Below are positions 16,715 to 23,271 of a stretch of DNA of 64,000 bases, piece after piece. Numbering within the stretch: the first letter of the stretch is position 1; the number at the start of each line of letters is the position of its first letter. Location of the stretch: NCBI GenBank assembly GCA_943789335.1, contig CALSTS010000003.1, positions 158,774 to 222,773 on the forward strand, in the 5' to 3' direction. The DNA comes from an uncultured Pseudomonadales bacterium (GTDB taxonomy: Bacteria; Pseudomonadota; Gammaproteobacteria; Pseudomonadales; Pseudohongiellaceae). The notes beneath the pieces were generated by a model, which had not been told where the DNA came from, did no database searches, and saw nothing but the letters and a program-made list of their open reading frames with translations. Position numbers and translations under genes: made by a program.

Positions 16715-18390
16715 ATGTCTGAAGAATTATTCCAGCAATACCTCATCATCCTAACTTTTTCGCTGATAGGCGCCGTTATTTTTCGACGACTGGGTATGGC
16801 AACTATTGTTGCTTATATGGCAAGTGGTGTTTTGGTTGGGCCTCATATACTGGGTTTTATAGATAATCCACAACAATTTACTTTGTTGGCTGAATTCGGC
16901 GTTGTATTCCTCTTATTCAACCTCGGTCTAGAATTTAACCTAAAAAAAAAATGATGGCTATGCGTTTTGCCGTTTTTGGTGTGGGAGGCTTTCAAGTTAC
17001 AGCCTGCACTCTGGTGTTTGCAACGGCGGTATATCTATGGGAATCAAACTTTTCTACTGCAATCATGATTGCAGGAACATTAGCTCTTTCGTCTACCGCT
17101 ATTGTTACGCGTGAACTACTCGCCAATCGTCAGTTGCATAACTTGCACGGTCAACTTTAAGTGGGCGTATTGTTATTTCAAGATATAGTAGCCGTCGTGT
17201 TTTTAGTCCTGGTGCCTGTACTTGGTGGCACTCAAGATGTTTCTCTGGCGAGCAGTCTGATGAGCGCTGCATTCAGTGCTGTAATATTGCTAGTGATTCT
17301 TTTGGTCACAGGAAAATGGATTCTGCCTATTATTTATACTGAAGTAGCCAAGAGTAAATCGAATGAAATATTCGTCTTAAGCACCTTAGTGATTGTCTTA
17401 CTCGCAGCTTGGTTAACTCATAGTTTTCATCTTTCGATGGCATTAGGTGCATTTGTTACCGGAATGATGTTGGGTGAAGGCCCCTTTAAATATCAAGTGG
17501 AAATTGATATTAGGCCTTTCAAGGACATCTTGCTTGGTCTATTTTTTGTCACTATTGGGATGGGGCTGGATGTCTCTTTATTGTTGATTTATTGGCCGCG
17601 GATATTATTTTTTACTCTTTGCTTAATCGGCATAAAATTCATATTAGTGGCCTCCGTTGTCCGTCTATTGAGATATAGCAGCCATGACGCATTAAGTGTT
17701 GGGCTGAACTTGGCTCAGGCTGGTGAATTTGGTCTTGCGCTAATGGCATTAGCCAAGATTAATGGCATTGTTACAACAGAACAGGCGTCCTTCATTATTT
17801 TAATCATCACTTTTAGCATGGTTGCCAGCCCTTTTTTAATTAGACATGCCAATTGGATAAGCAAAAAAATATTACAGGGAAAACCCTCTGAATCAAAAAA
17901 AGTTCCAATTCAGCTCCACCTAGAAAACCATGTCATTATCGGCGGATTTGGCAGGCTTGGGTCCACTTTATCAACTTTCTTAGAAAACAATGATTTCTCC
18001 TATATTGCCATCGAAACTAATATTGATTTAGTTGATAAATACCGAAATCAAGGCAAAAATATTATTTATGGGGACAGCAACAATGTCGAAATTCTAAATC
18101 ACTGCCATCTAGATTCAGCGCGCTTGGTAGTCCTCACGTTCAAATCTCTGGAGGAAGGTAAGGCTGCCATAGGGGGTATTCGACAACGCAATACCAATGT
18201 ACCAATTATTGTGCGTTGTCAGGATCATCACGGTTTAGATGAATTGTTATTACTTGGTGCTGATCATGTATATCCTGAATTACTGGAATCCAGTTTATTA
18301 ATCAGTCGACATGTGCTCGGATTGTTATCGATTAATGAACAAGAAATTACAAAACAAATTGATGAGTACAGGGTATCTCCTCCTCAATAA
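16715..18390 (+). pseudogene. CPA2 (KefB/KefC-like) K+/H+ antiporter with RCK/TrkA-N domain, broken by an A10 frameshift and an in-frame TAA
   Basis: ORF1 ends LEFNLKKK* inside a run of 10 A (16942-16951), and ORF2 continues MMAMRFAVFGVGG. ORF2 ends HGQL-TAA (17158-17160) and is followed in the same frame by GVLLFQDIVAV, the Kef ...LGILLFQD motif. The C-terminus carries VIIGGFGRLG (Rossmann/RCK). Confidence 0.85.
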
Positions 18391-18492
18391 CTCTTATTGA
18401 AAGAATCTAACTAAGAATCCAGCAATAAAAGCTAATGTCACTGTGAATAGAAAACGGACATTGTGGAGCAAACCCTTTTAAGGGCCCGAGTG

Positions 18493-18501
18493 TGCTATAA
18501 T
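18493..18501 (+). promoter_or_regulatory. Extended -10 promoter element TGCTATAAT upstream of the DUF1611 gene
   Basis: Exact match to TGnTATAAT, read directly, about 100 nt upstream of ATG 18601. No convincing -35, which is acceptable for an extended -10 promoter. Confidence 0.5.
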
Positions 18502-18600
18502 ACACCCCTTTCCGCTACTTAGCGGGGCCTTCCGTTGACAAACCGCCAATCCTGGTTGTAAAGATCCTGTCGCCTCCTCTGAGATTACTCAAGGTCTTAC

Positions 18601-19785
18601 ATGTCAATTACGTATACACCACCACTGTCGTCTGTAACCAACTCACCACTCGGTAAAGTGCCGATTCCAAGCATTCTTAAACTACATAGCAAAGCAAAAA
18701 AAATTCCAAAAGCCATCATTTATTGCGAAGCAAATTTTGGCGACATTGATGGAAAAACCGCCAATGGACTAATCCGCCATTCAGAAAAATATAAAATTCT
18801 GTCTGTTATAGACAGTAAAAAAGCTGACCTCGATAGCGGTATGGTGCTTGATAATGTAGCCAGCGATATCCCTATTTGCCGTAATCTATCAGACTCATTG
18901 GATCAAGCCGGCACTACCCCTGATTACTTTATTTTTGGAATGGCACCATCTAGCGGCATGTTATCTAAGCACGAACGCGCTCTCATTCTTGAAGCTATGA
19001 ACCATGGAATGAATATCGTTAATGGCCTACATGAATTTCTGAATGATGATCCGGTTTTTAAAGCTGCTTGTTTAGTGAGCGATGTGGAAATTCTAGATAT
19101 TCGTAAGCCTCGTGATAAGAAAGACCTTCACATATTCAGTGGTCGTATTTCCGAGGTTACCTGCCCGCGCATCGCAATACTTGGCACAGACTGCGCAATT
19201 GGAAAACGTACGACTGCCACTATTCTGACACGTGCTTTCAATGATATCGGCTTAAAAGCAGTATTGATTGGCACTGGCCAGACCGGCTTAATTCAGGGAG
19301 CACGTTATGGCGTTGCAATAGATGCCATCCCCTCACAATTCTGCGCTGGGGAGTTAGAAGCAACCATTGTTGAAGCATTTGAGAACGAAAAACCTGACGT
19401 CATCTTCATCGAGGGGCAAGGCTCATTAAGTCACCCAGCTTTTACGTCTTCATCATTTATCCTTCGCGGTTGTTGTCCCGATGCTATTGTTTTACAACAT
19501 GCCCCGAAGCGTGATTTTCGTTGTGACTTTGACAAAATGGCAATGCCAACACCATCGTCTGAAATAAACCTTTTAGAAACTTTCGCGGATACTAAAGTAA
19601 TCGCTCTTACTATTAATCATGAGAATATGACTGATGCTGAAGTCAGTAATGCTATCTCTAGCTATGAACTTGAACTCGGCATACCGGTTGACGATGCCTT
19701 AAAATGCGCTCCTGAAAGACTGATAGAAATGGTGATGCGTGCATTTCCAGAACTAGGGGAGAAATTACTTGCGCATGCACAATGA
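18601..19785 (+). CDS. DUF1611-family protein (P-loop-like GTDCAIGKRTTA); possibly a DgcN-like D-amino-acid N-acetyltransferase
   Basis: AIIYCEANFGDIDGKTANGLIRHSEKYKILSVID and ILGTDCAIGKRTTA are the motifs I associate with DUF1611. Its stop overlaps the downstream racemase start (ATGA). Confidence 0.65.
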   Translation: MSITYTPPLSSVTNSPLGKVPIPSILKLHSKAKKIPKAIIYCEANFGDIDGKTANGLIRHSEKYKILSVIDSKKADLDSGMVLDNVASDIPICRNLSDSLDQAGTTPDYFIFGMAPSSGMLSKHERALILEAMNHGMNIVNGLHEFLNDDPVFKAACLVSDVEILDIRKPRDKKDLHIFSGRISEVTCPRIAILGTDCAIGKRTTATILTRAFNDIGLKAVLIGTGQTGLIQGARYGVAIDAIPSQFCAGELEATIVEAFENEKPDVIFIEGQGSLSHPAFTSSSFILRGCCPDAIVLQHAPKRDFRCDFDKMAMPTPSSEINLLETFADTKVIALTINHENMTDAEVSNAISSYELELGIPVDDALKCAPERLIEMVMRAFPELGEKLLAHAQ

Positions 19786-20837
19786 GTGCACCGCGACTAG
19801 AAATTGACCTCACCAAGATTCAGCACAATGCCGGTATTCTAGTAAAACGACTCAAAAAACGTGGTATCTCTGTTAGTGCTATCACCAAGTCAGTACTAGG
19901 CTCGCAAGAAGTGGCCAATTGTTTTATTCGTGCAGGAATAAAAAGCCTGGGTGATTCTCGTATCAGCAACATTGAAAAGATGCGACATGGACAAATCAAG
20001 GCGTCAATGAGCTTAATACGTTCACCTATGCTGAGTCAGGTAGATAAGGTTGTGGCCTACGCTGATATGAGCTTCAACACTGAACTCGCTGTCATCAGAA
20101 AACTATCTATTGCTGCTCAAAAAACGAGACACAGGCATGGAGTCGTTTTGATGGTAGAACTGGGAGATCTGCGCGAAGGCATCATGCCAGATGATATGGA
20201 GTCTGTCGTTCAAAGTACTCTTGGCTTACCGGGAATAATATTAAAAGGCATAGGCACCAACCTTGCCTGCCGTAGCGGTGTTTCTCCAGACAATATTAAT
20301 ATGTCAAAGCTATCTGATTTAGCAGATTCGCTGGAATCTAAATTTGGCGTAAAATTTGACATTGTTTCCGGGGGCAACTCAGCCAACCTTGATTGGGCAA
20401 TGGGTAGTACAGACCTCGGTAGAGTAAATAATCTTCGTCTGGGGGAATCAATTCTACTTGGCCTGGAAACATTAAATCGTCGTCCAATTGAAGGTCTTCA
20501 TACTGATGCCTTTAAGCTTGTCGTAGAAGTTATCGAGTCTAAGATCAAACCATCTCAACCCTGGGGTAAGATAGCCCAGAATGCTTTTGGCGAACAAATG
20601 CTGTTTAAGGACCAAGGTAATATTTCTCAGGCGATTCTGGCAATTGGCCGTCAAGATATCGACCCTAATGGCATCAGGCCTCCTGCTGGGATCAAAATTA
20701 TTGGCAGCAGCAGTGATCACCTTATCGTTCAGTCCGAAGCGAATGACCTCGCAGTAGGAACTGAAGTCGTTTTTCAGCCTAACTACAGTGCATTGATGCA
20801 TGCAATGACCTCTCCTTTTGTAAACAAGGTAATGTAG
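19782..20837 (+). CDS. Alanine/ornithine racemase-family PLP-dependent enzyme
   Basis: N-terminal TIM-barrel pattern with a candidate PLP lysine (SVSAITKSVLG). Length is about 350 aa. Overall resemblance to Orr-type racemases. Translationally coupled to the DUF1611 gene. Confidence 0.65.
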   Translation: MSAPRLEIDLTKIQHNAGILVKRLKKRGISVSAITKSVLGSQEVANCFIRAGIKSLGDSRISNIEKMRHGQIKASMSLIRSPMLSQVDKVVAYADMSFNTELAVIRKLSIAAQKTRHRHGVVLMVELGDLREGIMPDDMESVVQSTLGLPGIILKGIGTNLACRSGVSPDNINMSKLSDLADSLESKFGVKFDIVSGGNSANLDWAMGSTDLGRVNNLRLGESILLGLETLNRRPIEGLHTDAFKLVVEVIESKIKPSQPWGKIAQNAFGEQMLFKDQGNISQAILAIGRQDIDPNGIRPPAGIKIIGSSSDHLIVQSEANDLAVGTEVVFQPNYSALMHAMTSPFVNKVM

Positions 20838-21038: not shown

Positions 21039-23271
21039 TTGCGCGCATTCAATATCCTCATCTCACTTTGTTTGTTGATTGTCCCATTTTTTTCAATGGC
21101 ACAAACTGAAACGCCTAGTGATTCAGGCATGCAGACATCAGACGTAAAAATCGCAGATGTCAGAAAAACCAATCTTGCACCTGTATTAGATGGCGTTCTG
21201 GACGACCCTATTTGGCAAGAAGCCAGGATGATTACAGATTTCCATCAGGTACAACCTGTTGATCATGGTGAACCCTCAGAGCCAAGTGTGTATTACATTG
21301 CCTATGACAATAATAATTTTTATATGGCTGCTAGGCTTTATGACAGCGACCCTTCGCAGATAAGAGCCAGGCAGTTAATTCAAGGTCAGAATGTCTTTGG
21401 AGACGACACGGCAGATATTTTGTTAGACACCTTCAACAACGACAGAACCGCATTTTATTTCCAGACTAATCCAAATGGCGTCCGTAGTGAAGGTGTCTGG
21501 GAAAGCGCTAGTAAATACAATAATGATTGGAGTGGTATCTGGGAAGTAGAGTCAAGAATTGATGAGCAGGGCTGGACCACAGAAATGATCATCCCTTTTA
21601 CCACCTTAAACTTTGATCCAAACACAGATGAATGGGGACTCAATCTAGGCCGCTCCATTGCTCGATATAACGAGAGAATTTATTGGTCATCCTTTAATCG
21701 CAGCACCAATCCTGCAACTGCAGGGCAGGTAGTCGGCATCAATGAAATTCAGCAGGGTTTAGGGCTGGATATAGTCCCTTCCTTAACCATTGCTCAAGCA
21801 GAAGATCATGCTGCTAACAGCACGAATGACCGAACAGATCCTTCATTAGATGTTTTTTATAAATTCACTCCCAATCTGACTGGCGTATTGACCTTAAATA
21901 CTGATTTTTCAGCCACTGAAGTGGACGACAGACAGGTAAATTTAACTCGATTCTCTTTGTTTTTCCCTGAAAAAAGAGACTTTTTCCTACAGGACTCCGA
22001 AATATTTAGTTTTGGTAATATTGGAGGATCTGGCGGGGGTAATGGCCCACCTGGTGCCAAGATTAATAACGGTATTCCTTTTTATTCAAGGCGTATCGGG
22101 CTGAATCCCGCTACCGGAGAGCCAGTTGATATAGATGTTGGCGGCAAATTGGCCGGTCGTGTTGGCAACCTCAGTTTAGGAGCTTTAGCTATACAGCAAG
22201 GTGATCGCGTCGGCCTGGATGGTCAGGATGTATTCGTCGGTCGTATTACATCTAATATACTTTCCGAATCAAAAATCGGAGCCATTTTTACCGATGGCAA
22301 TCCCAATAGTGTCACTGAGAACTCCCTGATGGGTGTCGATTTCACCTATCGCAACACTCAATTTTCCAATACTCATACACTCACCAGCGACCTGTGGTAT
22401 CAACAGTCTGATACAGAGAATATGGACGGTGATGATAAGGCTTATAACGCCAATATCAATTACTCAACACAAGGCACAGGCGCCAGTCTTGAACTTGATT
22501 ACAACTATGTCGGCGATGAATACAACCCGAGCCTTGGTTTCGCTAACAGAAGAGGGATAGAAAGAGCGGCATTTTCATCCAATTATCGTTATTTTCTGGA
22601 TTCGCACCCTTTTATTCGTAATCTGACATGGGTTCTTAGGGGAGATTACATAAGAGATTCTGAGACGGGAGAGATGCAAAGTCAGTTTGTGCAGTTTAAC
22701 CCAATTGCCTTTGATACTAATCGGGGAGATCTAGCTTTCCCTCATGGTGCAAAATGATAAAGAAGGTTTAACGCAACCTTTTGAAATTCAACCAGGGGTT
22801 ATCATCCCCGCTGGAGAATATTCCTTTAATTATGCTCAGATCATGATGAGATCTAGTAGAAATCGCACCCTTTCGCCCAACCTAACTTACCGTGAAGGTG
22901 CATTCTACGATGGTAAAAGTCAGGTCATCAATGCTGGTTTTGGTTGGAACCCCAATCGAAATCTATCTGTAGACCTTTCTTATAACTATACAGATGCATC
23001 CTTACCGGCAGGAGATTTTGTCACTCGTCTAATCCGACTAAATGCCAGGTACGCTTTTAATGTTGAATGGTCTTGGGTGAACTTATTGCAGTATGACAAC
23101 CGATCAGGCTCGTTAGGGCTTAACAGTCGCCTACGCTGGAACCCGCGCGCTGGAGAAAACCTTTATCTGGTGATCAACTACAACTTTGATTCCAGCATCG
23201 GAGCATTCAGGGAACTCAATCCGACAGATTCGGAAATAGTCGTTAAATATTCTCGGAATTTTAGGTTCTAA
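21039..23271 (+). pseudogene. CBM9-like / DUF5916 secreted or outer-membrane protein, split by a frameshift near 22735-22757
   Basis: ORF 21039-22757 has a signal peptide and PVLDGVLDDPIWQEA, typical of carbohydrate-binding family 9. ORF 22744-23271 is a beta-rich C-terminus ending in F. The two overlap in different frames next to an A4 run. TTG start. Confidence 0.7.

Follow-up and report, generated by a model that had tools for sequence, protein, structure and literature searches.

Riboswitches that act on translation by sequestering the Shine-Dalgarno (SD) sequence are compact. The Vibrio vulnificus add adenine element, the E. coli thiM thiamine pyrophosphate (TPP) element and the guanidine-II (mini-ykkC) class each occupy fewer than 100 nt of a 5' untranslated region (UTR), in which hairpins are joined by invariant nucleotides and an anti-SD/SD helix lies right before the start codon. 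Here we describe a leader of the same build in a 64,000-nt stretch of DNA from an uncultured Pseudomonadales bacterium (GenBank contig CALSTS010000003.1, positions 158,774 to 222,773, forward strand; hereafter the window). It precedes two overlapping genes, one for a DUF1611-family enzyme and one for a pyridoxal 5'-phosphate (PLP)-dependent racemase. As in the three known elements, a terminator is absent, and control would therefore be exerted when translation initiates. Unlike them, the leader has no relevant sequence or structure match in Rfam 15, and its tertiary fold, including a pseudoknot, is only proposed here.

The two enzymes also have described relatives. DgcN belongs to the DUF1611 family and is an N-acetyltransferase; DgcA is an enolase-type racemase of N-acetyl-D-glutamate. 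They give the DgcN-DgcA pathway of D-glutamate its name (PMC10845958). As in this pair, the first gene at our locus encodes both DUF1611 domains and is followed by a gene for a stereocentre-inverting enzyme. However, the window DUF1611 protein is ~35-39% identical to DgcN-like paralogues, no DgcA-type MR_MLE neighbour was found, and the partner is a PLP-dependent fold-type III racemase instead of a member of the enolase superfamily. With a PLP racemase as partner, reaction order and substrate must therefore differ from those of DgcN-DgcA. The best family for the second gene is ornithine racemase (Orr), known from ornithine fermentation in Clostridium (Acetoanaerobium) sticklandii, and ornithine-related neighbours occur in a few loci. 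In contrast to Orr, the hosts are mostly non-fermenting and largely marine, and the racemase gene is always coupled to a DUF1611 gene. Finally, like the orphan riboswitch candidates held in Rfam from surveys of the Weinberg and Breaker type, the leader is a motif of 5' UTRs that is conserved, covaries and goes with a single gene family; unlike them, it is not among the Rfam 15 models, and within the searchable papers, survey supplements excepted, DUF1611 is not mentioned in such a context.

We consider it very likely that this leader is a genuine, widespread structured cis-regulatory RNA that matches no catalogued family. On balance we favour the more specific reading that it is an orphan translational riboswitch, carried by an enzyme cassette that spreads horizontally. 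On this reading, an mRNA that encodes both the DUF1611 enzyme and the Orr-like PLP racemase has its 5' untranslated leader at ~18508 to 18600. Its parts are laid out as follows (window coordinates; P, hairpin; J, joining region):

18493 to 18501, + strand: extended -10 promoter element TGCTATAAT, read from the sequence; predicted transcript start near 18507-18509.
18510 to 18603, + strand: whole leader motif including the AUG start codon (covariance model R1, cmsearch 67.3 bits, E 1e-12, model positions 1-98).
18512 to 18525, + strand: P1, hairpin CCGCU/AGCGG, with a nearly invariant CUUAG (18518-18522) in and beside the loop.
18526 to 18541, + strand: joining region J1/2, GGCCUUCCGUUGACAA; family consensus GAC-NN-CUCGUUGACA.
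18542 to 18559, + strand: P2, hairpin ACCGCC-AAUCCU-GGUUGU, with one C-U mismatch in the window copy.
18560 to 18575, + strand: joining region J2/3, AAAGAUCCUGUCGCCU; family consensus NACGAU-NNN-GUCGCCU, columns nearly invariant.
18576 to 18594, + strand: P3, the expression platform, CCUCUGAG with CUCAAGG; it holds the anti-SD and an invariant CUGAG, with the SD sequence AAGG at 18591-18594.
18601 to 19785, + strand: DUF1611-family gene, 394 residues; Pfam DUF1611_N (81 bits) and DUF1611 (229 bits).
19782 to 20837, + strand: PLP racemase of the Orr-like branch, 351 residues; Pfam Ala_racemase_N.

The first-pass annotation, made from the letters of the window, had pointed to an exact TGnTATAAT element, a GC-rich leader of ~95 nt and three hairpins. 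The element is present on the + strand at 18493-18501, and the ~95 nt between it and the AUG at 18601 are indeed G+C-rich (0.51-0.52 in leader windows vs 0.33-0.39 directly upstream). The first hairpin (CCGCU-ACUU-AGCGG, 18512-18525) and the third (CCUCUGAG-AUUA-CUCAAGG, 18576-18594) coincide with the family helices P1 and P3. The second is real but had been drawn in the wrong register: comparison favours a stem of ACCGCC (18542-18547) and GGUUGU (18554-18559) that closes a loop of 6 nt. Because the 2.36-Mb genome has just one copy of the leader, a repeat or mobile-element copy was rejected.

Searching one genome per species, we found 549 relatives of the DUF1611 protein, the best 80 of which (65-78% identity) come from many phyla. 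Most of these best 80 loci share a spacing of exactly 42 nt from GTTGACA to CYTCTGAG, with an SD sequence and ATG ~25 nt further on. The same blocks as in the window leader stand upstream of a 67%-identical DUF1611 copy in a genome of the same order (G038; labels beginning with G or L are our own handles for genomes and loci), where the racemase gene again overlaps by 4 nt. A covariance model (R1; 98 positions, 19 pairs), based on MAFFT alignment A2 of 60 leaders, gave 70 matches in an initial set of 85 sources, all of them immediately in front of the start codon of a DUF1611 gene. In a later selection of 100 sources, R1 matched every one. A gene-independent pattern scan of species genomes yielded at least 119 stretches and added Actinomycetota (Demequina, Mycobacterium, Acidimicrobiia), Kiritimatiellota, Nitrospinota, Lentisphaerales, Magnetococcales and others; a pattern match inside a histidine-kinase open reading frame (ORF) of a Lachnospiraceae genome was rejected as a chance match.

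Together, the leader motif occurs in at least ~140 distinct loci, and every R1 match lies on the sense strand and ends at the downstream start codon. By record labels the hosts belong to at least 13 phyla: Pseudomonadota, Desulfobacterota, Planctomycetota, Actinomycetota, Acidobacteriota, Gemmatimonadota, Nitrospirota, Nitrospinota, Omnitrophota, Krumholzibacteriota, Verrucomicrobiota, Kiritimatiellota and Lentisphaerota. This conservation of sequence and structure supports the layout of a translational riboswitch or attenuator that had been suggested for the window copy. The motif also follows one subtype of the enzyme: among 41 relatives it was present in G000 and G038 alone, exactly the two with this DUF1611 subtype, and absent from the genomes with DgcN-like paralogues.

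The two genes are conserved as neighbours. In 78 of the best 80 of the 549 relatives, a racemase gene directly follows the DUF1611 gene. The window ORFs overlap by ATGA (19782-19785), as the first-pass annotation had stated, and a stop/start overlap is found in 106 of 108 distinct loci (ATGA in 45, TGATG-type in 61); translational coupling is therefore a conserved feature of the pair. Hidden Markov model (HMM) searches placed the proteins in the families that had been named for them, DUF1611_N plus DUF1611 for the first and Ala_racemase_N, within the Orr-like branch of the alanine-racemase fold, for the second. On all three points on which the earlier reading had been staked (leader conservation, protein families and gene adjacency) the comparison came out in its favour.

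The suggested link to DgcN held at the level of the DUF1611 family and failed at the level of DgcN itself, where the protein scored 156.9 bits against the NCBIfam equivalog (NF041892) with its cut-off of 480. Judged by this curated criterion on its sequence, the protein is a subtype distinct from DgcN, a relative and not a member; its relatives in the PDB are 2G0T, 2OBN and 7XRJ. The racemase scored 74.1 bits against Ala_racemase_N (PF01168; cut-off 24.1, residues 8-221), which places it among the fold-type III PLP racemases. Against NCBIfam racem_Orr (NF040742) it scored 373.7 bits with a cut-off of 480 (E 8e-112, aligned 4-351 of 351), so that by the curated criterion it would be classed as Orr-like, but not as Orr. 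A sequence search of the PDB gave no solved relative of the racemase.

Among 40 relatives searched, the DUF1611 gene was not found in the 12 same-genus and 12 same-family genomes. Two other genomes carry distant DUF1611 paralogues of ~30-39% identity. In G032, two DgcN-like copies adjoin enolase-type MR_MLE genes, the classical DgcN/DgcA arrangement. MR_MLE partners were seen only beside distant paralogues (L004, L006), both without the leader motif.

Within the RNA, covariation is carried by P2. It is paired in 96.9% of cases in a structure-blind MAFFT alignment and in 96.5% in the model alignment, with compensatory changes in 5 of 6 and 6 of 6 pairs, respectively. Its pairs are the top mutual-information pairs, its covariation score was reached by none of 500 shuffles, and sliding the partners destroys the signal. 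G-U pairs are common (UG 46% at columns 35-57, GU 35% at columns 38-53). The structure is that of a sense-strand RNA, because such pairs would be mismatches on the other strand or in duplex DNA. The P1 stem varies by lineage (CCAAC/GUUGG, CCAC/GUGG, UCCC/GGGA, CCGC/GCGG), and CUUAG is kept in all but 2 of ~139 leaders.

The SD sequence is sequestered by P3. Here the invariant CCUCCUCUGAG pairs with the SD sequence, and in local minimum-energy folds the whole SD is paired in 119 of 130 leaders. The mean energy of P3 is -9.7 kcal/mol vs -3.5 for shuffles. The 5' strand is invariant and all variation falls on the 3' strand, which suggests a second partner or function for the 5' strand.

Between the helices, the joiners GAC..CUCGUUGACA and ACGAU..GUCGCC hardly vary from phylum to phylum. 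In alignment A4 the J1/2 columns have an entropy of 0-0.5 bits, and a mutual-information scan gave no covarying partner for them. Such long near-invariant runs, predicted to be unpaired, are typical of a binding pocket and would be unneeded for a simple hairpin. RNAalifold pairs CUUAG with CUGAG, which makes these two blocks a candidate for a pseudoknot. Other core helices were considered and rejected: GGG:CUC (from RNAalifold), UCGU:ACGA, GAC:GUC, UGAC:GUCG and GGGGAC:GUC-CCU are each broken by uncompensated natural variants. The mutual-information scan recovered P2 pairs alone, and the signal that remains (for example, column 16 with columns 85, 102 and 110) is a lineage effect and not pairing.

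The leader thus shows several generic hallmarks of a riboswitch, namely conservation across taxa with covariation, a sense-strand position in a 5' UTR, a platform that can gate translation, and independence of the co-encoded protein. The last of these comes from loci in which the enzymes are gone. In five genomes from three phyla (two Pontiella, one Thermodesulfobacteriota, one Omnitrophota and L176), an intact leader (102-111 bits) is followed by mere remnants of the DUF1611 and racemase genes and then by another operon, which encodes a nucleotidyltransferase, a CobD-like PLP enzyme and a CDP-alcohol phosphatidyltransferase. The loci are:

L126:1548-4435, L106:805-3650, L103, L176 and L141: leader, enzyme remnants and second operon.

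In Pontiella the first 25-30 DUF1611 codons are fused in frame to the transferase. No DUF1611 homologue was found in three of the five genomes, which were searched whole and have a single motif copy each; the search did not extend to the racemase. The retention of the leader without its enzymes argues against autoregulation by the DUF1611 or racemase proteins and, together with its spread across phyla, favours a small, universally available effector.

Further decayed cassettes were observed. At L174:3750-4980 the leader lies directly before the racemase gene and DUF1611 has been lost. At L119:730-2174 a leader with a mutated start codon stands ahead of an AlaDH/PNT-family gene, and the start codon is also mutated in L103. 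The DUF1611 genes of L089, L117 and L132 are fragmented.

These loci bear directly on who reads the RNA. A structured cis-regulatory RNA could also serve a macromolecular partner common to all hosts, such as an RNA-binding protein, a tRNA, the ribosome or an RNase, and conservation, structure and SD sequestration are indeed silent on the nature of the binder. Many conserved leaders, among them ribosomal-protein leaders and T-boxes, bind macromolecules. We nevertheless regard this explanation as unlikely. The cassette moves between at least 13 phyla with near-invariant joiners, which demands that a protein partner either exist in all of them or be carried along, and the only co-transferred proteins are dispensable, the leader being retained in genomes that lack them. 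To our knowledge, CsrA-type regulators are not present in all these phyla. A T-box is contradicted by the size of the element (~70 nt before the SD) and by Rfam, which found none.

Less likely again is a structured 5' UTR that works without any ligand and merely tunes expression, whether by damping translation to a fixed degree, as an RNA thermometer or by stabilising the mRNA. In its favour, the hairpin that sequesters the SD, P3, is a plain one and moderately stable (-5 to -12 kcal/mol), as in RNA thermometers, and no alternative structure is proven by covariation. For such a role, however, pairing of the SD would be enough, which leaves ~35 near-invariant unpaired nucleotides and the invariant CUUAG loop unexplained. 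The same is true of the contrast between the invariant 5' strand and the drifting 3' strand of P3, which is seen in at least 13 phyla and over G+C contents from 0.43 to 0.68.

The conserved blocks could alternatively act in DNA, with TTGACA (18535-18540) as a -35 element, the ACGAT region as a -10 element and the inverted repeats as operators of transcription factors. TTGACA agrees exactly with the -35 consensus, family members have CACGAT 16-19 bp after it, and some lineages have a palindrome-like repeat (P0, see below) upstream, in the intergenic region shared with a divergent M81 peptidase gene. Yet the would-be spacer is the P2 stem, whose covariation with G-U pairs is sensible only in sense-strand RNA. 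Its length varies from 16 to 19, and the -10 candidate is poor (TAAAGA in the window). Conservation moreover extends past the SD as far as the AUG, phyla that differ in their promoter conventions keep the same sequence, and ~55 leaders, the window copy included, have a better-placed extended -10 element upstream of the motif. We therefore hold a DNA-level role to be very improbable. A leader-peptide attenuator, for which some members offer a reading of TTG ACA ... CTC TGA across the motif (several Desulfuromonadales copies are open from the TTG in GTTGACA to the TGA in CUCUGAG), is refuted by a stop-codon census in which each frame has stops in 124-132 of 137 leaders (>90%), with a TAA after 8 codons in the window and a TGA after 4 in L003, no 3-nt periodicity of variability and no conservation of the implied residues.

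Several observations also weigh against a translational riboswitch as we describe it, and against the window copy as its example. P1 forms with at least 4 bp in 86 of 139 leaders and is missing in a good third. Outside P2 and, in part, P1, the core is too conserved for covariation, and the model alignment leans towards the model's own structure. The CUUAG:CUGAG pseudoknot, which we treat as a hypothesis drawn from the alignments, rests on six natural substitutions, of which four are compatible and two are not. In L066, one pseudoknot-compatible substitution comes with a matching change that also keeps P3 intact. The window copy, at 67.3 bits where most leaders reach 80-112, is among the lower-scoring ones. 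Its deviations from the consensus are GCC for GAC, UCC for CUC and AAGAU for ACGAU (an A in place of the family C in J2/3); it also has the mismatch in P2, and its P3 is weak at -5.3 kcal/mol. Folded singly, it does not stand out from shuffled sequences (z -0.81; 38 of 200 shuffles are equally or more stable). It is therefore comparison that supports the structure and not the window copy, which could be a weakened member of the family. In the window both genes are intact, and the identical protein occurs on at least 21 metagenome contigs; the six that were examined have the same neighbours and an identical leader.

For the translational riboswitch we propose the following mechanism. The motif would present, in order, P1 with its CUUAG, the joiner GAC..CUCGUUGACA, P2, the joiner ACGAU...GUCGCC and P3. 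In the ligand-free state, P3 would hide the SD sequence. When a small molecule or ion binds to the conserved core, the CUGAG segment would leave P3, and the freed CUGAG may form a pseudoknot with the CUUAG loop. The ribosome-binding site would then be exposed and the first gene translated (switch ON), and translation would carry over to the racemase via the overlapping stop and start codons. We infer the small ligand, the ON direction and the pseudoknot; the ON direction, like the identity of the ligand, is a guess.

What the ligand might be is linked to what the enzymes do. For the gene pair we infer a D-amino-acid chemistry. A PLP racemase needs a free alpha-amino group, therefore the order DgcN-then-DgcA is impossible, and the enzyme would act on a free or side-chain-acylated amino acid. 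By analogy with the AblA/AblB route to N-epsilon-acetyl-beta-lysine, the pair might convert an L-amino acid to an N-acylated D-amino acid, perhaps a compatible solute. We tentatively suggest, while regarding it as doubtful, that the riboswitch class senses a ligand tied to this chemistry as a substrate or product of the cassette, or an osmotic signal, and that the two enzymes make up a mobile module of two steps. One candidate ligand would be a basic or D-amino acid, for example ornithine or an N-acetyl derivative. Hints that we count for a ligand of this kind are the ornithine cyclodeaminase genes and the M81 amidohydrolase-type neighbours described below. The alternative of an osmotic signal such as an ion is an impression. 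It arose because the second operon is solute- or head-group-like (its make-up hints, by likeness, at synthesis genes for phosphodiester solutes or lipid head groups) and because the carriers are mostly marine by record labels.

Of the neighbouring genes, only M81 (MlrC-like) metallopeptidases are frequent. They occur in 40 of 138 loci, mostly upstream and divergently transcribed, and all other neighbour clusters are found in at most 8 of the 138. Ornithine cyclodeaminase genes are present in 3 loci, and NPN-dependent (nickel-pincer-type) ornithine cyclodeaminase genes likewise in 3. In an HMM scan of the top clusters from the 138 loci, no D-ornithine aminomutase or other Stickland genes stood out.

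Transcription of the window leader would start from the extended -10 element, which is plausible as a promoter but not significant by itself. The 64-kb window holds 2 TGNTATAAT sites vs 4.4 expected by chance, therefore TGCTATAAT alone is without significance, and a consensus promoter scan gave no acceptable -35 element for it. In ~55 of 139 homologous leaders, those without P0, TGnTAnnnT lies 10-29 nt (mostly 11-21) 5' of CUUAG. P0 is an extra hairpin upstream of the motif in about half of the leaders (among them L009:2845-2870, L007, L044, L052 and L169) with the form GYGGGAA-UUUA-UUUCCRC. The inner GAA/UUC is conserved and the outer pairs covary, for example to GCCCGAA/UUCGGGC in L169. P0 could be a fourth RNA helix or an operator shared with the divergent M81 gene. 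The window copy is without P0 and shares its P0-free, promoter-proximal architecture with many other leaders.

Some carriers depart from the single-leader cassette. A Porticoccaceae contig has two tandem cassettes (L050:25-3562), the second leader (2758-2854) again lying before a DUF1611 gene. Alphaproteobacterial DUF1611-racemase operons (L037:2830-2932, L038, L043, L054, L074) have a different conserved leader, which contains the blocks CCGUAGUUGCUCCGCUAGCGCGAUCCCGCUGCUGGCGCC. Of the main motif it has nothing but the CGAUCCCG block, it was missed by both R1 and Rfam, and, on these five sequences, it may be a second leader type. Among the named carriers are the cultured Malonomonas rubra DSM 5091, Geothermobacter hydrogeniphilus, Demequina flava, Pontiella sulfatireligans and Stieleria bergensis. 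The impression given by record labels is that the named carriers are overwhelmingly from marine or sediment habitats (Malonomonas, Geothermobacter, Sedimenticola, Thiodiazotropha, Woeseia, Pontiella, Demequina, Gimesia, Stieleria, Marinobacterium, Halioxenophilus, Granulosicoccus). When phage carriage was looked for, the pattern had no match in IMG/VR.

Promoter, leader and the two genes together look like a cassette that the window genome acquired by horizontal transfer. Homology to the two closest genomes of the same genus breaks off exactly at the kefB stop codon (18390), and the 10 kb downstream are not syntenic. The end of homology at this point is consistent with acquisition of the cassette; clean insertion boundaries or an empty site could not be reconstructed from the comparison of these two genomes. 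The KefB/KefC-like antiporter gene upstream is split into three ORFs (16715-16954, 16951-17160 and 17161-18390), of which the last starts at position 141 of the Pfam profile. The gene consequently looks like a pseudogene. Its ortholog has two in-frame TAA codons in the same-genus G001 and an intact 557-residue frame in G006. Downstream, a DUF5916/CBM9 gene (21039-23271) consists of two overlapping ORFs here (21039-22757 and 22744-23271). It is a single gene of 724 residues on sibling metagenome contigs and is split differently on L207, so the split is probably a frameshift or an assembly error.

The leader of the window matched none of the riboswitch classes that the first-pass annotation could recognise, and the databases agree. 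No Rfam 15 match at E up to 10 was obtained for window positions 18300-18700 or for the alphaproteobacterial variant, and the consensus-like copy L009 gave only a chance snoRNA match upstream of the motif (12.7 bits, E 5.2). The blocks CUUAG, CUCGUUGACA, ACGAU and GUCGCCUCCUCUGAG match no riboswitch class known to us. In literature searches, outside which the supplements of motif surveys lay, DUF1611 was not linked to a riboswitch and the consensus strings had no relevant match; within the searchable papers, those that mention DUF1611 are not about RNA. A guanidine-IV variant motif is another motif than this leader (PMC9788692).

Orphan riboswitch classes as conserved and widespread as this one (at least 13 phyla, and hundreds of instances implied by the 549 gene relatives) are now rare, and each of them points to a metabolite or ion that many bacteria must sense. 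If the tentative assignment to ornithine or a D-amino acid were true, the leader would be the first riboswitch for such a ligand. Identifying the ligand would reveal the function of the DUF1611 protein and the Orr-like racemase and, conversely, the chemistry of the enzymes would point to the ligand. With its own promoter, sensor and translational coupling, and apparently moving between phyla as a unit, the cassette would represent a compact, self-regulating mobile metabolic module.

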